From positions 1-23,343 of IMG/VR virus record IMGVR_UViG_2541047945_000008: DNA of 23,343 nucleotides; one strand, written 5' to 3'. Within the stretch, counting starts at the first letter, position 1. Every line of letters starts with the position of its first letter. A model generated the notes under the pieces. It saw nothing but the letters and a program-made list of their open reading frames with translations. It had not been told where the DNA came from and did not search any database. The stretch is from a virus. Its lineage: Duplodnaviria > Heunggongvirae > Uroviricota > Caudoviricetes. Below are positions 10,601 to 22,009 of this stretch, in pieces. The position numbers and the translations under genes are program-made.

Positions 10601-11287
10601 ATGACCCCAATAAAAATATTTATGACTATTGCTGATTTCAAACGGCCTAAATTGGAGCTCCCAAACGGGGCAAACAAACTACTACTGCACTCTTGCTGTG
10701 CTCCATGTTCCGGTGAAGTGATGGAGGCGCTTCAGGCCTCGGGAATCGACTACACCATCTTTTTCTACAACCCGAACATTCATCCTCAGAAAGAGTATTT
10801 AATTCGTAAGGATGAAAATATTCGCTTTGCTGAACAACACGGCGTGCCGTTTATCGATGCTGATTACGACACCGACAACTGGTTTGAACGTGCCAAAGGA
10901 ATGGAATGGGAGCCTGAGAGGGGGATCCGTTGTACCATGTGTTTTGACATGCGTTTTGAGCGGACAGCGTTGTACGCTGCTGAAAATGGTTTCAGTGTGA
11001 TCAGCAGTTCACTGGGCATTTCACGCTGGAAAAATATGCAGCAGGTTAACGAGTGTGGGCGGCGAGCTGTTGCGCATTATCCGGGTATGGTGTACTGGGA
11101 TTATAACTGGCGCAAGCAGGGCGGCTCGTCCCGTATGATTGAAATCAGCAAGCGCGAAAAATTCTATCAGCAGGAATATTGTGGCTGTGTGTATTCTCTG
11201 CGCGATACCAATCTACACCGCAAATCTCAGGGACGCCCTCTTATCAAAATTGGCCAACTCCACTACGGAAAAGAAGAGAAGGAGTGA
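10601..11287 (+). CDS. queH: DUF208/QueH-like protein (putative B12-independent epoxyqueuosine reductase), 228 aa
   Basis: N-terminal [11 protein letters not shown] motif with additional conserved Cys (CTMC, CGC), recalled as the DUF208/QueH signature. No obvious SD; alternative ATG at 10622. Confidence 0.6.
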
Positions 11288-11845: not shown

Positions 11846-12496
11846 ATGAATGAAAATCAGTTAGCTCCTTGTTGGGAATTTCAACCTTATCTTGCTGAAA
11901 ACTATGTTCGCCACTTGTTGGCGGAGATCGCTAACGTACTTGAGCAGCTGTACTATCATAAGCACGCATTAGACAGCAACTGGTCTGAAGGTGTAAGGGC
12001 TTATGATTGGGTCAGAAATCATCTTATTCAAAATGAAGATGCAATTCCTGGCCTTGAGATGATTTCCAAGGGGTTGGACTATGTAGTTGCTTTAAATAAA
12101 GTTCCGCTACAATTTACCAAAGATTGCATTAATAACCCCAAAAAGAAACATCGTCTGCGTCGAAATAAAGTAGAGTATGAGCAGCTCTCATTGTTTGGTG
12201 ATGTTGAGGCTGAGCAAGATATTACATGGCGAGTCATAGCTGAGCCTTTTTTATCCGAAGAGGGCGATGGTGAATTAGAGTCCACACTGCCTCGTTGGGA
12301 GGTAGCTCTTGTTGGATTTAATACTTATGGTGCTCAGATTAGTATAGTTTCTCATCAATCTACAGCATCGATGCCGCTTATGCCTCTTGATTATAACACA
12401 CTCCCTGACGAAGCGGAGATTAATAAGGTGCCTCTTCGTCGGCGTACGAAGGATAAAGATTTGGATGTGAGCAGTGATGGAACATCAGGTGAATAA
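11846..12496 (+). CDS. Hypothetical protein (216 aa), candidate toxin/effector partnered with an HTH-peptidase
   Basis: AT-rich ORF overlapping the downstream HTH-XRE/ImmA-like gene by 20 nt. Possible promoter TTGACA at about 11781 with an AT-rich -10. No domain recognised. Confidence 0.6.
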   Translation: MNENQLAPCWEFQPYLAENYVRHLLAEIANVLEQLYYHKHALDSNWSEGVRAYDWVRNHLIQNEDAIPGLEMISKGLDYVVALNKVPLQFTKDCINNPKKKHRLRRNKVEYEQLSLFGDVEAEQDITWRVIAEPFLSEEGDGELESTLPRWEVALVGFNTYGAQISIVSHQSTASMPLMPLDYNTLPDEAEINKVPLRRRTKDKDLDVSSDGTSGE

Positions 12497-13580
12497 CTTC
12501 ACTGAGTATCGGGGTGATAAGCTCAAACTAGCGAGAATGGCTGTTGGGCTTTCTTGTGAAGAGTTAGCCGAAAAAATTGGCAAGACAAAGCAATTCGTTA
12601 GCAAACTGGAGAAGGGGTGCAGGCCATCGGAGCAATGTCTTGAGTTAATATCTTCAGCGCTTATGATTAAGTCCAGTTTTCTTTTTACTGAACGAAAATA
12701 CGCTCTGGAAAGTGATGTCTGCCATTTTCGGAGTAAGAAGTCCAGGACTCAAACGCTGACTAATAGTGTATTGGCCAGGGCTGAGATTCTTAATATTATA
12801 ATTTCTGCTGTTGAAGGTGAAATCGAATTTCCTGACGTTAACATACCGGAGCACCCAGGGGCTGAATTACTTACTCCGAATGATATTGAGCGAGTGGCAG
12901 AAGATTGTCGCCGTGCCTGGAATTTAGGTCTTGGCCCTATATCATCAATGGTTAAATTGGCGGAGAGTTTAGGGGTAATCGTTGCGCATGTTACGGGAGT
13001 CGATGATCGTGTTGATGCTTTTACTGTTCACAATAACAGGCCTGTTATCATCAGGAACAATGTTAAAAAAAGCATATGTAGATTTCGCTCTGATTTAGGT
13101 CATGAATTAGGGCATTTAGTAATGCATGAGGGCATAACGACAGGTGATAAACTTACGGAATCACAAGCCGATCACTTTTCGAGCGCCTTATTAGTTCCCA
13201 GGTTATCTTTCATTAAAGAATTTCCACGAATACGAGGTAAGCAATTCGACTGGAATGCTCTGGTTGAATTTAAACTTAGATGGAAAATCAGCCTTAAAAT
13301 GTGTATTTATCGAGCCAGCGCATTAGGCTTATTGACCCAGGAACAGGCAAGAACTGGCTATATGCATCTTAATTCCAGAGGGTATACGAGAGTTGAACCT
13401 GGTGATGAACTTTTGCGCCCTGAAGAACCCGGCATGCTGGCCGAGGCGATTGAAATGCTGGATGATGCAACCTGGCTAAGAATTCTTATGAAAACTGGCT
13501 TGAGCCAAGATTTAATTCGTGAGTTGTTCTCCATCAACAGACCTATTACAAATCCAAGAAATATTTTCCAGATTGTTTGA
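12477..13580 (+). CDS. HTH-XRE DNA-binding domain fused to an ImmA/IrrE-type (M78/COG2856) zinc metallopeptidase, 367 aa
   Basis: N-terminal HTH (LKLARMAVGLSCEELAEKIGKTKQFVSKLEKG) and HExxH zinc-binding motif (HELGHLVMHE). Track ORF starts at GTG 12474; ATG at 12477. Confidence 0.8.
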   Translation: MEHQVNNFTEYRGDKLKLARMAVGLSCEELAEKIGKTKQFVSKLEKGCRPSEQCLELISSALMIKSSFLFTERKYALESDVCHFRSKKSRTQTLTNSVLARAEILNIIISAVEGEIEFPDVNIPEHPGAELLTPNDIERVAEDCRRAWNLGLGPISSMVKLAESLGVIVAHVTGVDDRVDAFTVHNNRPVIIRNNVKKSICRFRSDLGHELGHLVMHEGITTGDKLTESQADHFSSALLVPRLSFIKEFPRIRGKQFDWNALVEFKLRWKISLKMCIYRASALGLLTQEQARTGYMHLNSRGYTRVEPGDELLRPEEPGMLAEAIEMLDDATWLRILMKTGLSQDLIRELFSINRPITNPRNIFQIV

Positions 13581-15303: not shown

Positions 15304-15663
15304 ATGCTCATAGATTTGGTTTTACCTTACCCGCCGACGGTGAACACTTACTGGCGACGCCGTGGCAGCACATATTTTATCTCGGAGGAGGGAAAGCGTT
15401 ATCGCCGGGCTGTGGCGCTTATTGTTCGCCAGCAGCGGCTGAAATTAAGCCTGTCCGGAAGGCTGGCGATAAAGGTGATTGCAGAGCCACCGGATAAGCG
15501 CCGCCGCGACCTGGACAATATCCTGAAGGCACCACTGGATGCGCTGACGCATGCCGGACTACTTATAGACGACGAGCAGTTTGATGAAATCAATATTGTG
15601 CGCGGTCAGCTCGTTCCTGGTGGGCGGCTGGGGATAAAAATCACAGAACTGGAGTGCGCATGA
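15304..15663 (+). CDS. rusA: RusA Holliday-junction resolvase
   Basis: 119 aa with RusA hallmarks (PPTVNTYW; DKRRRDLDNILKAPLDALTHAGLLIDDEQ). SD GAGGTGA upstream. Confidence 0.85.
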   Translation: MLIDLVLPYPPTVNTYWRRRGSTYFISEEGKRYRRAVALIVRQQRLKLSLSGRLAIKVIAEPPDKRRRDLDNILKAPLDALTHAGLLIDDEQFDEINIVRGQLVPGGRLGIKITELECA

Positions 15664-16349
15664 ATAACCAGTATTTACAGTTTGTGCGTGAGCAGCTCAT
15701 TATCGCCACCGCTGATTTGAGTGGGGCAACAAAAGGTCAGCTTGAAGCCTGGCAGGAGAATGCCATGTTCGATACAGGGCGTTACAGGCGTAAAAAAATC
15801 CGGTACCGCGATGAAGTGACCGGAAAAATGATAACGCGGGATAATCCACCAATCCCGGGAAAACAATCGCTGGCGAAGGGGACGTCAATTCCTCTGGTCA
15901 GTCAGGTTGCTTTTTCTACATCATCATGGCGGCGGGCTGTTTTGTCTCTTGAAGAACATCATAAAGCCTGGTTGTTGTGGTGTTACAGCGGAAATACTTG
16001 CTGGGAGTATCAGATCGCGATAACGCAGTGGGCATGGACAGAATTTAAGACTCACTCTGGTACCAGGAAAATTGCAGGGAAGACACAGGAACGCCTGAAA
16101 AAATTAATCTGGCTGGCTGCACAGGATGTCAGGAGATGGGTTATAGGACATGATATCTACCAGCAACAGGAGCTTGCCCGTCTGTGTGGGATTAAGCCTG
16201 ACAACTGGAGCCACAATTATGTGAGCTACTGGCGTGAAATACTCGACATTTTTATGAACCTCGATACCGAATCTCTGATTTGCACTGTGAAAAGGAGATC
16301 TCAACAAAAAGCGGCATTTTTGCAGCGAGATATTGCAAAAGTCAATTAG
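15660..16349 (+). CDS. Late-gene antiterminator Q-like protein (229 aa)
   Basis: ATG overlaps the rusA stop (ATGA). Position downstream of rusA and upstream of the tRNA/late region, and size, fit a Q antiterminator. Confidence 0.6.
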   Translation: MNNQYLQFVREQLIIATADLSGATKGQLEAWQENAMFDTGRYRRKKIRYRDEVTGKMITRDNPPIPGKQSLAKGTSIPLVSQVAFSTSSWRRAVLSLEEHHKAWLLWCYSGNTCWEYQIAITQWAWTEFKTHSGTRKIAGKTQERLKKLIWLAAQDVRRWVIGHDIYQQQELARLCGIKPDNWSHNYVSYWREILDIFMNLDTESLICTVKRRSQQKAAFLQRDIAKVN

Positions 16350-16396
16350 ATAGCATATATTTTATGTAAATGTGATATATTGCTGTAAAGTGTATA

Positions 16397-16423
16397 AACC
16401 CGCTCAAATGTGCGGGTTTTTTG
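16397..16423 (+). terminator. Rho-independent terminator downstream of Q
   Basis: cccgc-tcaaatgt-gcggg followed by TTTTTT. Confidence 0.55.
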
Positions 16424-16495
16424 CTTAACTCTGTGGACCTTTTTATCTGTAGTTGTAATATATGGATATTGTTACAATTTAGGTCGGTGAGCTTA

Positions 16496-17260
16496 ATGGA
16501 AGAACAGCACGGTAATTACTTTATAAAACGAATTCAGTTGATTGGAAGAGGGGCATTTGGCTTTGTTGAACACGTTAAGGTTTACAACCTCAATAAAGGT
16601 GAATGCGGGGATTATGCTAGAAAGGTTTTAGCACCCGAAAAACCAGAGCTTTTGGCGCAAATAGAGCAGTTTAGAAGGCGTTTTAAAAGGGAGGTTGTGT
16701 ATCAATCACATTGCGTACATAGCAATATTGTTCCTATTTATTTGTGCGATTTGTTTGTTGAGAATCCATGGTTCATTATGGATAAAGCAGAATGTGATCT
16801 TGAGCACGAAATAACGAACAACCTTCTTACAACAGATCAAAAAATTTCAATAGTGAAAATGGTATTAGATGGTGTAGCTTACATCCATGCCAAAGGCTAT
16901 TTACACAGAGATATAAAACCCTTTAATGTTTTGCGATTTAGCGACGGAACATACAAGGTGTCTGATTTTGGTCTGGTAAAAGATACGAATCCCGAAGGGG
17001 ATACCACTAAATTGACCGAGATCGGTACCCGTATGGGAAGTACAAGATATATGGCTCCCGAGATTTTATATAATGCAGAGTATTCAGTTAAGACTGATGT
17101 TTATGCTGTGGGACGGTTAATTGAAGACTTAAATTTAGATGATAAAAAAATAAAGCCTATCATAGCTAAGTGCACAAGGATGGATAAAGATGATAGATAT
17201 CAGACAATAGATGATGTGGCGTTTGATTTTGCGCATTCTTTTTTAAGGAGTGAGTCATGA
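16496..17260 (+). CDS. Hanks-type (eukaryotic-like) Ser/Thr protein kinase, kinase domain only (254 aa)
   Basis: Canonical subdomains: GRGAFGFV (Gly loop), YARKVL (catalytic Lys), HRDIKPFN, DFG, MAPE, DVYAVGR. ATG at 16496 (track ORF starts at TTG 16421). AT-rich. Confidence 0.85.
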   Translation: MEEQHGNYFIKRIQLIGRGAFGFVEHVKVYNLNKGECGDYARKVLAPEKPELLAQIEQFRRRFKREVVYQSHCVHSNIVPIYLCDLFVENPWFIMDKAECDLEHEITNNLLTTDQKISIVKMVLDGVAYIHAKGYLHRDIKPFNVLRFSDGTYKVSDFGLVKDTNPEGDTTKLTEIGTRMGSTRYMAPEILYNAEYSVKTDVYAVGRLIEDLNLDDKKIKPIIAKCTRMDKDDRYQTIDDVAFDFAHSFLRSES

Positions 17261-18000
17261 TTCAGCTGATAGCGACTTCATCATTCTCGTATCCAAAAGA
17301 ACCAGGTAGGGTCAACGAAGATTCATTGCTTCCTCCAAAAATTGTAGGAGACGGCATCTTATTTGCCGTAGCTGATGGTGTAGGTTCATACTCTGGTGCC
17401 AGTTATGCTTCATCCATGGCAATCGCTGAACTTTCAGCATTGACAAGTTTATCTTTTGATGCAGTTCCGAATGTATTTGCTGAAGTTAAGCGAAAAGTTA
17501 TGTCGTTAGCTGAAGTTAATGATGAGTTCGATAAAGCTGCTACTACACTTACCTTTTGTTATGTTTGTGATAGCGGAATTATTATTGGTCATATTGGTGA
17601 TTGTCGCTTGTATTGCATTGGAGAAAAGAAAGCATATCAATTGACGAAGGACGATACCAGACATCAGATGTTAATTGATCAGAATATTTTTAAACCCAGA
17701 GATTTGAAGAATAAACCGGGAAAAAATATCTTAACGACTGCCATAGCCTCAAATGTTGATATGGAATACGACTGTGATTTTATCCCGTGGAAAGATTTGC
17801 CTGGTATTAACGGGTTGTATCATCTGTGTATCATGTCTGATGGAGTTCATAACGTTTGGGAAAAACGCCCCAGATTTACATCAAATACTATGAGTAATAG
17901 TCAGAAGTTTTCTAATGGTATTTTGCGTCGTATAGAGAGAGCCGGACCTGATGATGACTTTTCTTTAGTAAGTATAATGGTGCGTGTGACGTCAGATTAG
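17257..18000 (+). CDS. PP2C-family (PPM) Ser/Thr protein phosphatase (247 aa)
   Basis: PPM motifs: NEDS, FAVADGVGS, GDCRLY, MSDGV, GPDDD. Start overlaps the kinase stop (ATGA), so the pair is translationally coupled. Confidence 0.85.
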   Translation: MIQLIATSSFSYPKEPGRVNEDSLLPPKIVGDGILFAVADGVGSYSGASYASSMAIAELSALTSLSFDAVPNVFAEVKRKVMSLAEVNDEFDKAATTLTFCYVCDSGIIIGHIGDCRLYCIGEKKAYQLTKDDTRHQMLIDQNIFKPRDLKNKPGKNILTTAIASNVDMEYDCDFIPWKDLPGINGLYHLCIMSDGVHNVWEKRPRFTSNTMSNSQKFSNGILRRIERAGPDDDFSLVSIMVRVTSD

Positions 18001-18073
18001 TTGTATAAACCCAGTAGGGAATGCTAATTTCCCATACTACAGAGTAAAGAAAAACTTAATTTTAATGTGAAAA

Positions 18074-18096
18074 GGCTGCTATCAGGCGGCCTTTTT
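18074..18096 (+). terminator. Rho-independent terminator after the phosphatase
   Basis: ggctgc-tatcag-gcggcc (one G-U pair) followed by TTTTT. Confidence 0.55.
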
Positions 18097-18110
18097 ATGT
18101 CTGAAAAGCT

Positions 18111-18437
18111 GTGCAGTACGTTAAACACGCTTGTGGTTGTGAATGCCGACTGCGGCGGTATTTTGGCGTGACAGCGCAGGTGCCGTATACCGATGTCTGG
18201 ACGCATAAACCGGTGCAGTTCTATCCCGGGAAACATCCGTGCGAAAAACCGGCAGAAATGCTGCAGCAGATAATCAGCGCAAGCAGTCGTCCGGGAGACC
18301 TGGTTGCAGATTTTTTTATGGGCTCAGGTTCAACGGTAAAAGCGGCACTGGCGCTCGGGCGTCGTGCGATTGGCGTTGAACTGGAGACCGGACGTTTTGA
18401 GCAGACAGTCAGGGAAGTTCAGGATTTAATCGTTTGA
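18111..18437 (+). pseudogene. C-terminal fragment of an N6-adenine/N4-cytosine DNA methyltransferase; N-terminal catalytic part absent
   Basis: HPCEKP ... PGDLVADFFMGSGSTVKAALALGRRAIGVE matches the HPTQKP plus FxGSGS(T) AdoMet-binding end of this methylase class. No DPPY-type region upstream; only about 110 bp separate it from the phosphatase gene. Confidence 0.55.
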
Positions 18438-18486: not shown

Positions 18487-18562
18487 GGCCCTTTAGCTCA
18501 GTGGTGAGAGCGAGCGACTCATAATCGCCAGGTCGCTGGTTCAAATCCAGCAAGGGCCACCA
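18487..18562 (+). tRNA. tRNA with CAU anticodon (Ile2-lysidine or Met type)
   Basis: Hand-folded cloverleaf: acceptor GGCCCTT/AAGGGCC, D-arm AGCTCAGTGGTGAGAGC, anticodon loop CTCATAA, T-arm GGTTCAAATCC, 3' CCA. Confidence 0.8.
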
Positions 18563-18736: not shown

Positions 18737-18782
18737 CACTTATTTTCCCTGGCTCGCTTTTGCGGGCTTTTTTTTAAATGTC

Positions 18783-18996
18783 TCACAATTCAGGCGGTTG
18801 ACTGTTGTCTGGTTTGCGGGGAGTTTGTTAAAAGAAACTGGCATGGTGAATCCCCCTGTGCGGAGGGGCAATCAGCGAGTAGGTATATGGGATAATCGCG
18901 GATTCAGGTGCTGGTACTGAATTCACCGGGAGGCACCCGGCACCATGCAATGGCACATAGCGCCACTCTCCAGCCCCTCTCCGGAGGGGCTTTTCT
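18783..18996 (+). repeat. Repeat unit A: structured element ending in a terminator (candidate sRNA gene)
   Basis: Shares blocks with unit B: tcacaattcag, ttgac, tttgttaaaa, catggtgaatcccc, a cccc/gggg hairpin, caccgggaggcacccggcaccatg and terminator gcccctc-tccg-gaggggc plus T-run. Confidence 0.5.
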
Positions 18997-19250
18997 GTGC
19001 CGGATACATCACAGTTTCTGGAACCTTAGGTACTACAGTATCAGTCAGGGTGCTATATTTTCAGATGTGATGAAAGCCTGTCAGCAGGCAGGGCGTATCG
19101 GAAATGACCCAGTAGAGAAAACGTTGACTCAGATACCGGTGCTGAGTTACCGGGAAACCGGCATCACATGACCGCTATCCTTCCAGGCCCATCCGCTCCG
19201 GTGGGCCTTTTTACTGCAGAAAACAGGTTCCCCGTTAAATGCTATGTTGC

Positions 19251-19483
19251 TCACAATTCAGTAAGTTGACAGTTGCCTGTCAGACTGGGCATTTGTTAAA
19301 AAAATTTCGCATGGTGAATCCCCCTGAGCGGAGGGGCGACTGGTGACGGTATAATCTCTGATTATCAAAACGAGAATGACGCGGGTTTAGTGGCACCGGG
19401 CTGAACTCACCGGGAGGCACCCGGCACCATGTGCATGATGATACAGATACGCGGCTTTAGCCCCTCTCCGGAGGGGCTTTCTT
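19251..19483 (+). repeat. Repeat unit B: second copy of the structured element
   Basis: Same conserved blocks and the same terminator hairpin (agcccctctccggaggggctttctt) as unit A; internal segments diverge. Confidence 0.5.
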
Positions 19484-19711
19484 ATGGACAAAAAAAGCCC
19501 GCGCTGGGAGACGCGGGCGGCAAGGAATAAACAATAAAACGTGAAGTAATATTTCAGCTGGCGAATAATACCCCATAGTAATCACTCTGCGCAACTGCGC
19601 GGTCTTTTTCGAATTGCGGGCTGTAGTCTCCCTTCTGCCATTGTCCTGTAACTTCCGGACTTCAGCCTGCTCCTTATCTGACTCACAACATTATCCCGCC
19701 CGGGAGGATTC

Positions 19712-19855
19712 ATGGCATTTAAACACTATGACGTGGTCAGGGCGGCATCGCCGTCAGACCTTGCGAAACGACTGACACAAAAACTGAAGGAGGGCTGGCA
19801 GCCGTTTGGTAGTCCGGTGGCCATAACCCCTTATACCCTGATGCAGGCGATTTGA
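19712..19855 (+). CDS. Small phage protein (47 aa as read) whose 3' end and stop codon are supplied by the IS629 terminus
   Basis: ATG at 19712 with SD GGAGG 5 nt upstream; the ORF ends at the TGA formed by the first bases of the IS inverted repeat (TGAACCGCC...). Confidence 0.5.
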   Translation: MAFKHYDVVRAASPSDLAKRLTQKLKEGWQPFGSPVAITPYTLMQAI

Positions 19856-19906
19856 ACCGCCCCGGGAATCCTGGAGACTAAACTTCCTGAGAAAGAGGTA
19901 AACAGG

Positions 19907-20233
19907 ATGACTAAAAATACTCGTTTTTCCCCTGAAGTCCGTCAACGGGCAGTCCGTATGGTTCTGGAAAGTCAGGGCGAATATGACTCACAATGGGCGA
20001 CAATTTGTTCCATTGCTCCAAAGATTGGCTGTACGCCGGAGACTCTGCGTGTCTGGGTTCGCCAGCATGAGCGGGATACCGGGGGCGGTGATGGAGGGCT
20101 CACCACCGCTGAACGTCAGCGTCTGAAAGAGCTGGAGCGTGAAAATCGTGAACTGCGCCGCAGTAACGATATCCTTCGCCAGGCTTCCGCTTATTTTGCG
20201 AAGGCGGAGTTCGACCGCCTCTGGAAAAAATGA
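19907..20233 (+). CDS. IS629 transposase OrfA (HTH, 108 aa)
   Basis: [57 protein letters not shown]... with a leucine-zipper-like C-terminus. Confidence 0.85.
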
Positions 20234-21120
20234 TGCCACTGCTGGATAAGCTGCGTGAGCAGTACGGGGTCGGACCGCTATGCAGCGAACTGCATATTGC
20301 CCCGTCAACGTATTACCACTGTCAGCAACAGCGACATCATCCGGATAAACGCAGTGCCCGTGCGCAGCGCGATGACTGGCTGAAGAAAGAGATACAGCGC
20401 GTATACGATGAAAATCACAAGGTATACGGTGTGCGTAAAGTCTGGCGTCAGTTGTTACGGGAAGGTATCAGAGTGGCCAGATGCACTGTGGCACGTCTCA
20501 TGGCGGTTATGGGACTTGCCGGTGTTCTCCGGGGTAAAAAGGTCCGTACGACCATCAGCCGGAAAGCCGTTGCCGCAGGCGACCGCGTAAACCGTCAGTT
20601 CGTGGCAGAACGACCTGACCAGCTGTGGGTGGCTGATTTTACTTACGTCAGCACATGGCAGGGCTTCGTCTATGTGGCGTTCATCATTGATGTGTTTGCC
20701 GGATACATTGTGGGGTGGCGGGTCTCATCGTCCATGGAGACGACATTCGTGCTGGATGCACTGGAGCAGGCGTTATGGGCCCGTCGACCGTCCGGCACGG
20801 TCCATCACAGTGATAAAGGTTCTCAGTATGTATCGCTGGCCTACACACAGCGGCTTAAGGAAGCCGGATTACTGGCATCAACAGGAAGTACAGGCGACTC
20901 GTATGACAACGCGATGGCGGAGAGCATCAATGGTCTTTACAAAGCGGAGGTAATACACCGTAAGAGCTGGAAAAACCGTGCAGAAGTGGAACTGGCCACA
21001 CTCACGTGGGTGGACTGGTATAACAATCGACGATTGCTGGAAAGGCTGGGCCATACTCCTCCGGCAGAAGCAGAAAAAGCTTATTATGCTTCCATCGGAA
21101 ACGATGATCTGGCAGCCTGA
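20230..21120 (+). CDS. IS629 transposase OrfB (DDE integrase-like catalytic domain)
   Basis: 296-aa ORF overlapping OrfA (ATGA); rve-type DDE domain (WVADFTYV ... HHSDKGSQY ... DNAMAES). Confidence 0.85.
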
Positions 21121-21164
21121 GTTCACAGATAAAATACTCTCCAGGAAACCCGGGGCGGTTCACA

Positions 21165-21425
21165 CAGTATCAAGTAAGCCCGGAGACTTCTTCCTATAGA
21201 TCGTATTATCAACGTATTCAGACACAGTCAGCAGGTGCTCATACCCACTCGCTGTCTGGTACTGCAGCAAGTTCTGGCGCACATGCACATACTGTAGGTA
21301 TTGGTGCGCATACGCACTCCGTTGCGATTGGTTCACATGGACACACCATCACCGTTAACGCTGCGGGTAACGCGGAAAACACCGTCAAAAACATCGCATT
21401 TAACTATATTGTGAGGCTTGCATAA
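21165..21425 (+). pseudogene. 3' fragment of a side tail-fibre gene (C-terminal approx 86 codons, no start)
   Basis: Open frame from the IS629 end to TAA at 21423-21425: ...[66 protein letters not shown], with His-containing GxHxH repeats typical of tail-fibre C-termini. Followed directly by tfa. Confidence 0.7.
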
Positions 21426-22009
21426 TGGCATTCAGAATGAGTGAACAAGCACGGACCATAAAAATTTATAATCTGCTGGCCGGAACTAATGAATTTATTG
21501 GTGAAGGTGACGCATATATTCCGCCTCATACAGGTCTGCCAGCAAACAGTACCGATATTGCACCACCAGATATTCCTGCTGGCTTTGTGGCTGTTTTCAA
21601 CAGTGATGAGGCATCGTGGCATCTCGTTGAAGACCATCGGGGGAAAACGGTTTATGACGTAGCGTCAGGGGACGAGTTATTTATTTCTGAACTCGGTCCG
21701 TTACCGGAAAATGTTACCTGGTTATCGCCGGAAGGGGAGTTTCAGAAGTGGAACGGCACAGCCTGGGTGAAGGATACGGAAGCAGAAAAACTGTTCCGGA
21801 TCCGGGAGGCGGAAGAAACAAAAAACAAACTGATGCAGGTAGCCAGTGAGCATATTGCGCCGCTTCAGGATGCTGCAGATCTGGAAATTGCAACGGAGGA
21901 AGAAACCTCATTGCTGGAAGCCTGGAAAAAGTATCGGGTGTTGCTGAACCGTGTTGATACATCAACTGCACCTGATATTGAGTGGCCTACGAACCCTGTC
22001 AGGGAGTAA
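21425..22009 (+). CDS. tfa: Tail fibre assembly protein (Tfa), 194 aa
   Basis: Start overlaps the tail-fibre stop (TAATG). Conserved Tfa C-terminus ([32 protein letters not shown]). Confidence 0.8.

Follow-up and report, generated by a model that had tools for sequence, protein, structure and literature searches.

Why does a defective lambdoid prophage of E. coli hold a kinase gene and the gene of an opposing phosphatase as a small, self-contained two-gene unit? The question is raised by the window, the whole stretch of 23,343 nucleotides analysed here, in which the prophage has lost its lysis and structural genes and has kept the kinase/PP2C cassette. Judged by its sequence and its occurrence, the pair, which recurs in many temperate phages, is probably a minimal relative of phosphorylation-based anti-phage and toxin/antitoxin (TA) modules.

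Organization of the kinase/PP2C cassette

The pair starts just 3′ of the Q/pR′/tR′ region (Table 1), where the arrangement of pR′ and Q is analogous to the annotation of phage 933W (Q, pR′, qut, terminator). It is bounded by two strong terminators, and its GC content is 0.34-0.41, compared with 0.50-0.57 in the flanks. The upstream, tR′-like terminator (16396-16419, before the end of the T-run) folds with -14.7 kcal/mol (z -4.5 against shuffles) and is kept in alleles of 95% and 93% identity. The terminator of the cassette itself folds with -19.8 kcal/mol (z -5.8, with 0 shuffles equally good) and is conserved in locus L090. An Rfam match to Leu_leader at 16320-16422 (E 0.011, 27 versus 50 bits) lies in the tR′ terminator region and was set aside as chance-like; the Rfam search returned no family within the cassette. 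On the 3′ side of the cassette, an open reading frame (ORF) at 18111-18437 represents the C-terminal third of an N6_N4 methylase.

The initial annotation, made from the sequence alone, had described two coupled low-GC genes between terminators, followed by a truncated DNA methylase. The ORFs, their ATGA overlap, the drop in GC, both terminators and the methylase remnant bear out this description. It had also assigned the pair to the slot that holds toxin and accessory cargo in Stx-type phages. The cassette does lie in the accessory region between Q and lysis; its slot, however, differs from that of stx in 933W, where the stx genes are found downstream of the tRNAs, whereas the cassette is located upstream of the tRNAs, in the same region.

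Table 1 Features of the cassette and its surroundings (positions in the window) and kinase-null alleles of the family.
Feature	Position	Strand	Description
Q CDS	15654..16349		Phage_antiter_Q match 5.6e-84
pR′-like late promoter	16333..16361	+	TTGCAA-17-TATATT; promoter scan; overlaps the end of Q
tR′-like intrinsic terminator	16396..16425	+	Upstream boundary; AAACCCGC..GCGGGTTT, then T-run
Putative cassette promoter	16434..16461	+	-35-like TGGACC 16434-16439, 16-nt spacer, -10-like TAATAT 16456-16461
Palindrome	16453..16477	.	TTGTAAT-A-tatggatat-T-GTTACAA; left arm overlaps the -10-like element
Kinase gene	16496..17260	+	Hanks-type RD Ser/Thr kinase; 254 aa, kinase domain only
Coupling junction	17247..17260	+	GGAG Shine-Dalgarno 17247-17250, ATGA start/stop overlap 17257-17260
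PP2C/PPM phosphatase gene	17257..18000	+	247 aa, catalytic domain only
Cassette terminator	18070..18098	+	AAAAGGCUGC-uauca-GGCGGCCUUUUU
Kinase-null allele 1	17144		1-nt deletion; 5 complete genomes and L022
Kinase-null allele 2			10-nt deletion; L023
Kinase-null allele 3			W93stop; L053

Structure of the kinase and the phosphatase

Translation of the kinase most likely begins at its ATG rather than at a TTG at 16421, as the RefSeq protein and all homologues begin with MEE... The protein matches Pfam Pkinase (PF00069) with 1.5e-33 (cut-off 31.7 bits), and the only Pfam families matched are Pkinase and PK_Tyr_Ser-Thr. In an alignment of 27 family sequences, the residues G17/G19/G22, K43, E66, H137-R138-D139, K141 and N144 are invariant, and so are D157-F158-G159 and E189; D201 and R234 are conserved. 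The catalytic loop, HRDIKPFN, is of the Ser/Thr type. In the AlphaFold (AF2) model, which has a pLDDT of 88 and a TM-score of about 0.7 to known kinase folds (PknB, BTK), the kinase domain occupies the entire protein. The activation loop, which spans residues 162-177 and includes the nearly invariant T174, is modelled as disordered. A domain search over the 254 amino acids found no PASTA, transmembrane, sensor, CSD or FHA domain.

The phosphatase matches Pfam PP2C_2 (PF13672, 3.9e-14) and PP2C (PF00481, 1.2e-4), both above the cut-offs. Residues D22, D40-G41, G114-D115, D195-G196 and D233-D234 are conserved in the 27-sequence family alignment, and the six aspartates among them are invariant. 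Its AlphaFold model, with a pLDDT of 93, reaches TM-scores of 0.75-0.80 to the bacterial PPM folds Stp1, PstP and tPphA, and the domain search found no sensor domain in this protein. The PP2C subfamily is tight, consisting of 19 clusters (50% identity) at E<=1e-30 among 1.84 billion representatives. At the junction of the two genes, the ATG of PP2C (17257-17259) overlaps the kinase stop codon TGA (17258-17260). Both genes are under strong purifying selection, with a dN/dS of 0.04 for the kinase and 0.12 for PP2C.

The complete set of catalytic kinase subdomains and the full PPM metal-binding set that had been read from the translations are present, with all named motifs conserved in the 27 aligned members. 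The Pfam profile search and the structure prediction proposed at that time confirm the kinase and PPM folds, and the catalytic residues, whose loss on alignment had been named as an argument against the reading, are retained in both proteins.

Distribution of the pair

Of 88 family loci, 87 have the PP2C gene directly downstream of the kinase gene on the same strand, the exception being a contig end. The overlap of the two genes is 4 nt in most of the 88 loci according to an ORF scan, which took the first possible start codon, so that the values listed for the other loci may deviate from the true overlap. Kinase and PP2C behave as an obligate unit. With taxonomy taken from the source names, the pair is spread over the Gammaproteobacteria (Enterobacterales, Vibrio, Pseudomonas, Pasteurellaceae), and temperate phages of Cronobacter, Yersinia, Proteus, Klebsiella, Vibrio and Pseudomonas also carry it. 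It is present in the phages Flotzy and phiES15 (40-45% protein identity), and also in Yersinia, P. putida and Vibrio. Within the phage collection searched, the full pair occurs in temperate phages only, and none was found in the virulent phages of that collection. A near-identity DNA search of the same collection gave no match, its relatives being 40-45% identical as protein.

The carriers comprise lambdoid, corticovirus-like and other temperate elements and, in P. putida, an island outside prophages. Their slots vary: in temperate phages, the pair follows Q or the lysis genes or adjoins cI/N, which amounts to at least three unrelated slots. Among the upstream neighbours are lysozyme or Rz (17), Q-type antiterminators (14), S24 repressors (7) and N (3), while terminase, holin and methylase are among those downstream. 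Within 200 nt past the PP2C stop codon, 29 of 57 family loci have a terminator-like site, compared with 12 of 264 control windows. The cassette is found in 50 of 5426 complete E. coli genomes (~1%), with prophage DNA in every locus examined. E. coli carriers include EAEC 55989, APEC BEN2908, VR50 and the laboratory strain ML35.

Conserved elements of the leader

The -10-like element of the putative cassette promoter falls inside an invariant motif, TGTAAnAT, which is unchanged in six relatives (74-100% identity) despite diverging flanks. GTCGGTG, in the ribosome-binding region, is also invariant among the leaders of the compared relatives, and between alleles with a dS of 0.14-0.16 the 76-nt leader shows 2 substitutions. 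Across the family, 23 of 47 non-redundant leaders have GTA[ACG]N[AT]T at -50..-30; the -40..-31 bin contains 18, and no other bin exceeds 5. Exact 7-mers are not enriched above shuffles in the family leaders, and the leader signal reads as positional and degenerate, not as an exact 7-mer. The putative promoter scores 8/12, which is weak and under the threshold of the promoter scan. Among the marks of a moron, the cassette has a terminator, low GC and variable slots, and for the promoter the conserved -10-like motif alone.

An imperfect palindrome just upstream of the kinase gene had been noted in the initial annotation and read as a possible operator. The palindrome is indeed present, with perfect arms of 6 bp (TTGTAA, 16453-16458, and TTACAA, 16472-16477) to which a T.G pair can be added. 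In the allele of 95% identity, the only changes in the leader, T16459G and G16471C, affect the two partners of one pair and result in a perfect 8-bp stem. Conservation does not support the operator reading: L021, Cronobacter, Raoultella and L096 (relatives at 93% and 74-76% identity) lack the right arm. A repeat finder listed 8 inverted repeats with a length of 8 nt or more, the palindrome not among them. Folded as RNA, it reaches a z of -0.8, with 38 of 200 shuffles doing equally well, and was rejected as a hairpin for being unexceptional. The palindrome is weak and confined to E. coli alleles, and its left arm corresponds to the family-conserved -10-like element.

Comparison with known kinase-based systems

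The closest characterised precedent is KKP (PfpC-PfkB-PfkA; Guo et al., Nat Commun 2024, PMC11341870), a module of two kinases and a phosphatase that is carried by Pf6, P2, P4 and Mu-like prophages. KKP is a prophage TA and defence module that protects against T4 and T-odd phages. Its trigger is a phage protein that inhibits the phosphatase, with T4 Gp59 acting on PfpC, and its second role involves phosphorylation of the H-NS-family protein MvaU and prophage induction (PMC11341870). Like KKP, the cassette combines a prophage-borne Hanks-type Ser/Thr kinase and a PP2C (PF13672) in one operon, in Gram-negative hosts including E. coli. [quoted passage not shown] No triplet is found here, where the flanks are Q/tR′ and the terminator/methylase fragment, and 87 related loci likewise hold two genes. 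KKP toxicity requires both kinases, with an essential C-terminal CSD (GFI/A motif) and FHA domains (PMC11341870). While the KKP kinases carry a CSD or FHA domain, the cassette kinase of 254 aa has no extra domain and is accompanied by no second kinase. Set apart by the published description of KKP, the cassette follows KKP logic without being a KKP member.

The kinase Stk of phage 933W and staphylococcal Stk2 had been put forward as precedents. Both are kept as comparisons, with KKP being closer than the distant Stk. The latter is reported to be activated by infection with HK97 and to take part in phage exclusion (PMC3681748). Both Stk and the cassette kinase are eukaryote-like kinases from an E. 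coli lambdoid prophage and are matched by the PADLOC profiles of PD-T4-6. In contrast to the cassette kinase, Stk has 348 aa and HFD in place of HRD, is reported to be a tyrosine kinase, and lies in the immunity region with no phosphatase partner. Close homology to Stk was rejected, with 24% identity over 215 aa and a different catalytic-loop motif. A single-gene defence of the PD-T4-6/933W Stk type was rejected as well, since the PP2C partner is obligate and the profile match is not full-length: on the PD-T4-6 profiles (292-327 positions), the cassette kinase covers about 10-201 and 933W Stk about 18-273. Stk2 is a phage-activated Ser/Thr kinase that causes abortive infection via broad phosphorylation (Depardieu et al. 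2016, as summarised in PMC11341870 and PMC9519451). Unlike the cassette kinase, it is the product of a single host gene, has a length of about 500 aa and includes an additional N-terminal region; the cassette kinase matches the PADLOC Stk2 profile at positions 160-348 of 500 only.

In PADLOC, the kinase domain comes closest to profiles of defence kinases (mad6 6e-40, PD-T4-6 1e-34, Stk2 1e-27), the matches covering generic kinase-domain parts only, and the sole match of the phosphatase, PDC-M21C with 0.0035, is not convincing. The earlier remark that the pair is not recognised as a named defence system holds for this profile search. The literature, searched including the RefSeq and phiES15 accessions, yielded no experimental study of the kinase/PP2C family. 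A two-gene kinase-PP2C phage module is not described in the literature searched, including a bacterial STK atlas and a component-modularity defence preprint, and the CoCoNuT preprint no longer mentions PP2C.

Proposed function of the cassette

With moderate confidence, we postulate that the cassette is a lysogen-expressed, phosphorylation-based exclusion module of the toxin/antitoxin type, which forms an autonomous accessory unit ('moron') of temperate phages. A weak promoter and a terminator of its own would enclose the genes of a minimal, active Ser/Thr kinase and of a PP2C coupled to it in translation. The lysogen would make kinase and PP2C at a fixed ratio, and PP2C would hold the RD-type kinase and the substrates of the kinase dephosphorylated and 'off', with Thr174 as the likely control point. 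In the pair PknB/PstP, the PP2C dephosphorylates the activation loop of the kinase. Infection by a second phage would then upset the balance of the two enzymes. This could occur by inhibition or titration of the phosphatase, comparable to the action of T4 Gp59 on PfpC in KKP, by direct stimulation of the kinase, comparable to 933W Stk on HK97 infection, or by the disappearance of whichever partner is less stable once the host is shut off. The kinase would auto-activate and phosphorylate many host or phage proteins, resulting in growth arrest and blocked phage production. The cassette would act as a reversible switch for abortive infection or superinfection exclusion, whose toxin is the kinase and whose antitoxin is the phosphatase. 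We infer enzymatic activity, toxicity of the kinase, the trigger and the defence phenotype, as well as lysogen expression, which is predicted for this cassette. Late lytic expression would be certain if Q acts, given the sense orientation of the cassette in the Q-dependent late operon.

An abortive-infection or exclusion role had already been suggested, and the idea is strengthened by the obligate pairing, the promoter-like element and the terminator, an occurrence limited to temperate phages and mobile elements, and the kinase-null alleles. Also in favour are the retention of the cassette in a prophage stripped of lysis and structural genes, the proximity of the kinase domain to defence-kinase profiles, the precedents KKP and 933W Stk, and a further pair in this prophage that matches the PADLOC models RmrT and RmrA. 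Three such alleles arose independently, each with an intact PP2C, and no phosphatase-null allele with an intact kinase was found among 59 non-redundant loci; this asymmetry of three versus zero is suggestive and not significant. A single minimal kinase may lack toxicity, given that KKP is toxic only with both of its kinases and their CSD and FHA domains. The weak promoter-like site (8/12), the absence of a sensor domain from either protein, the want of a convincing PADLOC model for the phosphatase and the failure of the literature searched to yield an experiment on the family are further points that weigh against the proposal.

More tentatively, and as a rather doubtful possibility, the cassette may be a two-protein immune or TA switch without a sensor, in which the bare kinase/PP2C balance would act as the sensor and the phosphatase would be the guarded target of phage inhibitors. 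If true, the pair would constitute a widespread two-gene 'KP' defence family of temperate phages, distinct from KKP and from single-kinase systems. If the prediction is right, no simpler phosphorylation-based phage-exclusion or TA module would be known: the cassette comprises about 1.5 kb and two catalytic domains with no accessory domains. [quoted passage not shown] As ~1% of complete E. coli genomes and temperate phages of other genera carry it, the cassette could influence phage-therapy host range and prophage competition.

Alternative explanations

The cassette could instead control lysogeny or induction by phosphorylating a host nucleoid or regulatory protein, thereby tuning its own or co-resident prophages, which we regard as unlikely. 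Exactly such a second role is described for KKP (MvaU), and the cassette often adjoins the phage regulators Q, cI-like S24 repressors and N. However, it occupies at least three unrelated slots, is also found outside prophages in the P. putida island, and is kept by the prophage of the window though no lysis or structural genes remain for regulation. Such control and a defence role can coexist.

Lying in sense orientation directly 3′ of pR′/tR′, the cassette may also be seen as a tool of the lytic cycle. The late transcript, antiterminated by Q, would supply a kinase that remodels or disarms the host in the manner of T7 gp0.7, and the phosphatase would limit the damage or reset the targets. A precedent is provided by the T7 kinase, reported in a preprint as disarming bacterial defences (bioRxiv 10.1101/2024.12.20.629319). 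Late expression would, however, come too late for counter-defence, and the -10-like element and the terminator are conserved even at early and immunity-region sites. Furthermore, the virulent phages of the phage collection lack the full pair, kinase-null alleles persist in prophages, and the constant coupling to a phosphatase is hard to account for. A lytic function is unlikely to a similar degree.

The TA-like logic and the tight coupling of the pair, its presence on diverse mobile elements and the null alleles, which hit the kinase only, are also consistent with a selfish addiction module. In this case, the kinase/phosphatase TA would kill cells that lose the prophage or island and would have no anti-phage role. 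Many prophage TA modules nevertheless prove defensive, KKP being an example, and the mechanism overlaps with that of the exclusion module that we favour; addiction by itself seems quite improbable.

The pairs PknB-PstP, Stk1-Stp1 and PrkC-PrpC share the same two folds and the antagonistic logic with the cassette and are its best structural matches. The best NCBIfam matches are the Stk1 family for the kinase (1.6e-29) and the Stp1/IreP family for the phosphatase (2.2e-27). As equivalogs, Stk1 (103 versus 450 bits), Stp1/IreP (96 versus 230 bits) and MAD6 were all rejected, far under their cut-offs. Housekeeping kinases are chromosomal, clade-universal membrane receptors with PASTA or other sensors, whereas the two cassette proteins are soluble and minimal, and their genes occur on mobile elements only. 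A known housekeeping pair, which the initial annotation had listed among the findings that would count against it, is rejected, since only 50 of 5426 complete E. coli genomes carry the cassette and all of the loci examined are prophage DNA, and the low NCBIfam scores and the lack of PASTA and transmembrane domains agree with this. On the same grounds, together with the lack of sensor domains, an ordinary signalling or lysogenic-conversion pair acting on host physiology or virulence like Stk1/Stp1 or PknB/PstP, unrelated to phage conflict, is very unlikely, even with the pathogens 55989, BEN2908 and VR50 among the carriers.

Defence-finding tools may at present miss or mislabel the cassette, given the partial match of the kinase to the PD-T4-6 profiles and the lack of a model for the phosphatase.

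The kinase-phosphatase unit and its boundaries

The cassette downstream of Q consists of two overlapping ORFs on the + strand, a Hanks-type kinase gene followed by a PP2C/PPM phosphatase gene. Both Pfam matches, to Pkinase and PP2C_2, exceed the curated cut-offs. The kinase start is best taken as the ATG at 16496, as RefSeq and all homologues open with MEE. With a GGAG Shine-Dalgarno sequence 7 nt upstream of the ORF overlap, the junction is a classical one for translational coupling. GC content is 0.34-0.41 over the pair versus 0.50-0.57 in both flanks, and the unit is bracketed by two intrinsic terminators. The next ORF retains the C-terminal third of a DNA methylase. In a related prophage (L090), the methylase is intact and a 66-aa ORF separates it from the cassette, so the window has undergone a deletion just downstream of the cassette terminator. 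The initial annotation had described two low-GC genes overlapping by ATGA between two terminators and ahead of a truncated methylase, and this description is confirmed throughout, as are both domain assignments in the profile search.

Positions of the cassette, its signals, variants and surroundings
Feature	Position	Strand	Description
Intrinsic terminator	16396-16419		just after Q; z -4.5
-10-like TAATAT	16456-16461		within TGTAAnAT; TGGACC 16 nt upstream
Kinase gene	16496..17260	+	254 aa; Pfam Pkinase 1.5e-33
PP2C phosphatase gene	17257..18000	+	247 aa; Pfam PP2C_2 3.9e-14
ORF overlap	17257-17260	+	phosphatase ATG 17257-17259, kinase stop TGA 17258-17260
Intrinsic terminator	~18070-18098		just after phosphatase; -19.8 kcal/mol, z -5.8, 0 shuffles equal
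Methylase ORF	18111-18437		next after cassette; C-terminal third of ~350-aa N6/N4 DNA methylase
Kinase-null allele 1	A7 run at 17144		1-nt deletion; five complete genomes and one IMG/VR contig (L022)
Kinase-null allele 2	16627-16636		10-nt deletion just after catalytic Lys; L023
Kinase-null allele 3	W93stop		L053, distant family member
Inverted repeat AAGTCAAT..(~36 nt)..ATTGACTT	~4490-4545 of L002 (phage Flotzy)		8-9-bp repeat; also leaders of L044, L049, L055, L062, L064, L080, L081
IS3 element	orfA 19907-20233, orfB 20230-21120
Tail-fibre-assembly gene	21425-22009
QueH gene	10601..11287		epoxyqueuosine reductase, 1.1e-65
RmrT match	11846..12496	+	PADLOC, 4.6e-25
RmrA match	12474..13580	+	PADLOC, 6e-105
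tRNA	18487..18562		ARAGORN: Met (anticodon CAT)
STnc100 sRNA copies	18812..19002, 19041..19214, 19280..19489	+	Rfam; 165, 136 and 30 bits
Possibly rearranged locus	L083 1..2534		IMG/VR contig

Conservation of both enzymes

The kinase is of the RD type, and its catalytic loop, HRDIKPFN, is that of a Ser/Thr kinase. In an alignment of 27 family members (43-100% identity), all catalytic residues are invariant, namely G17/G19/G22, K43, E66, H137-R138-D139-K141-N144, D157-F158-G159, E189, D201 and R234; the catalytic subdomains read earlier from the single sequence hold across the family. The AlphaFold model has a pLDDT of 88 with a disordered activation loop (residues 162-177), within which Thr174 is nearly invariant. 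RD kinases are usually switched through activation-loop phosphorylation, which makes this loop a natural control point for the partner phosphatase. The PPM metal-binding set that had been noted in the phosphatase is likewise present and invariant in the family alignment (D22, D40-G41, G114-D115, D195-G196, D233-D234). Its model (pLDDT 93) superposes on the bacterial PP2Cs Stp1, PstP, tPphA and PppA with TM scores of 0.75-0.80. Neither protein leaves room for a further domain. Between two E. coli alleles (dS ~0.14-0.16), the kinase has a dN/dS of 0.04 and the phosphatase one of 0.12, indicating that both genes are maintained by selection.

A paired family in variable locations

The kinase family is well populated and consists of ~250-aa, kinase-domain-only proteins from throughout Gammaproteobacteria. 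By the names given in the sources, its genera include Escherichia, Raoultella, Yersinia, Hafnia, Providencia, Xenorhabdus, Photorhabdus, Serratia, Enterobacter, Pantoea, Aeromonas, Vibrio, Photobacterium, Pseudomonas, Haemophilus and Xanthomonas. The phosphatase family is distributed alike, and many contigs are common to both. Its clade is narrow, with 19 clusters (50% identity) at E<=1e-30 among 1.84 billion representatives; below this threshold, the matches grade continuously into generic PP2Cs.

We examined 88 loci from two cultured temperate phages, isolate genomes and 80 IMG/VR contigs. In 87 of them a PP2C gene directly follows the kinase on the same strand, mostly with a 4-nt overlap, and the sole unpaired kinase lies at a contig end; the pair is thus an obligate unit. 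Within the phage collection, the full pair occurs only in temperate phages, namely Flotzy and phiES15. A survey of neighbouring genes at ~55 non-redundant loci matched upstream Q-type antiterminators (14), lysozyme or Rz (17), cI-like S24 repressors (7) and N (3), and downstream small and large terminase subunits, holins, lysozyme and methylases. The cassette therefore occupies differing variable slots of temperate phages. In Vibrio it adjoins a PM2-like (corticovirus-type) prophage, and in P. putida it resides in a transposase- and integrase-rich island beside a PNP-superfamily 'Effector' protein.

Two further observations concern the family. Against PHROG profiles (phrog_5650, phrog_2361), the phosphatase aligns to positions 273-520 of one with 565 positions and the kinase to 6-273 of one with 415, so some phage records may encode, or annotate, fused kinase-phosphatase proteins. 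In L083, the kinase C-terminus is broken and a 366-aa PP2C ORF carries a ~120-aa internal duplication, reflecting either rearrangement of the cassette or an artefact of assembly.

Putative expression signals of the cassette

Aligning the leader with those of six relatives (74-100% identity) shows that TGTAAnAT is invariant while the flanking leader diverges; GTCGGTG, in the ribosome-binding region, is invariant as well. Across the family, 23 of 47 non-redundant leaders carry GTA[ACG]N[AT]T at a distance of 30-50 nt before the start codon, with 18 occurrences in the -40..-31 bin and <=5 in every other 10-nt bin. The 76-nt leader carries 2 substitutions between two E. coli alleles versus ~10 expected at the synonymous rate (p ~1e-3, our own binomial estimate). 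At the other end, 29/57 loci have a hairpin plus T-run resembling a terminator <=200 nt past the PP2C stop codon, often within 5 nt of it, versus 12/264 control windows. Taken together, the promoter-like element, two genes, terminator, atypical GC content and variable location would constitute the classical architecture of a phage 'moron'. Moron units are typically expressed from the prophage.

A palindrome upstream of the kinase had been put forward as a possible operator. The element exists, its arms pairing perfectly over 6 bp and the left one coinciding with the conserved -10-like element; it is weak on RNA folding (z -0.8), absent from the repeats reported by the repeat finder, and its right arm is missing in a 93%-identity relative, in Cronobacter and in the 74-76%-identity relatives. 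Within the leader, the E. coli alleles differ at two positions only, T16459G and G16471C, which are partners of one pair; the change converts T.G to G-C and yields an 8-bp perfect dyad. In a separate subfamily, comprising Flotzy and seven others, a AAGTCAAT...ATTGACTT inverted repeat brackets the -10-like element, with a covarying variant ATGTCAAT/ATTGACAT in L080. These paired changes and the subfamily repeat make some dyad-symmetric regulation around the putative promoter possible. No DNA-binding protein or regulator is encoded within the cassette.

Relation to known systems and proposed function

The closest characterised system is KKP, a prophage operon of one PP2C phosphatase and two Ser/Thr kinases, which acts as a phosphorylation-based TA system, gives protection from T4 and T-odd phages, is activated through inhibition of its phosphatase by T4 Gp59, and also controls Pf prophage induction via MvaU (Guo et al. 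2024, PMC11341870). The cassette shares its kinase/phosphatase logic but has two genes rather than three, in reversed order, and lacks both the CSD-fused and the FHA-fused kinase; by every architectural criterion of the KKP authors, it falls outside KKP. The 933W kinase Stk reportedly takes part in phage exclusion when HK97 infects (PMC3681748). In contrast to the cassette kinase, to which it is only 24% identical, Stk has HFD instead of HRD, lies in the immunity region without a phosphatase partner, and matches PD-T4-6 profiles along their length, whereas the cassette kinase matches only the N-terminal two-thirds. Matches to the Stk2, MAD6 and Stk1/Stp1 models are partial or far below cut-offs. 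Our literature search found no paper on the two-gene kinase-PP2C family. This compact family stands outside the phosphorylation-based defence and TA modules already described for prophages.

Three independent alleles break the kinase and spare the PP2C, while the reverse, a broken phosphatase beside an intact kinase, was seen at none of 59 non-redundant loci. A toxin/antitoxin relation predicts such an asymmetry, which at three against none is only suggestive. Locus L089 is listed together with these alleles.

The existence of a kinase-PP2C unit that is intact, under selection, mobile and obligately paired, and that has the architecture of an autonomous element, is firmly established. What we infer of its activity, toxicity, expression timing, trigger and phenotype is best captured, with about even confidence, by a lysogen-expressed kinase/phosphatase switch, that is, a toxin/antitoxin-type exclusion or abortive-infection module. 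We postulate that the PP2C would keep the kinase off until infection upsets the balance. The exclusion switch suggested in the initial annotation remains a proposal, reasonable and now better supported. Two rival readings are compatible with such a switch: control of prophage induction, as in the second role of KKP, and a purely selfish addiction module. The cassette may otherwise be a late-expressed host-takeover tool, or serve an ordinary signalling or conversion function. It is small, widespread and open to direct testing.

The host prophage

The window represents a lambdoid prophage of E. coli, integrated beside ompW. Strain ML35 and others carry the 1.76-kb cassette at 100% identity; among 5426 complete E. 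coli genomes it is present in 50, with all matches chromosomal. From RusA and Q, the region continues with a pR'-like promoter and a tR'-like terminator, then the kinase, PP2C, cassette terminator, methylase fragment and tRNA-Ile(CAU)/Arg/Arg. The backbone of phage 933W is the same, with Q, pR', terminators, ileZ-argN-argO, stx2, SASA esterase and holin, which places the cassette within the Q-to-lysis accessory region. The proposed Stx-cargo slot holds to this extent; the cassette lies upstream of the tRNAs, away from the stx position.

The prophage is defective. Following the tRNAs, an IS3 element adjoins the tail-fibre-assembly gene (region 18737..22009), leaving the prophage without the lysis, terminase, head and tail genes that ML35 has. 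This junction is common to only 2 complete E. coli genomes. The cassette is still intact despite the truncation.

The tRNA trio matches the ileZ-argN-argO arrangement of 933W; RefSeq assigns an identical copy of the gene called Met by ARAGORN as tRNA-Ile, corresponding to 933W ileZ. Three tandem STnc100 copies, two strong and one weak, separate the tRNA cluster from the IS3 element. The early region of the prophage additionally contains a QueH gene. Furthermore, ~3 kb upstream of Q, adjoining genes matching RmrT and RmrA, the latter with an HTH domain and an M78 ImmA/IrrE peptidase domain, form a second, already catalogued defence-type pair.
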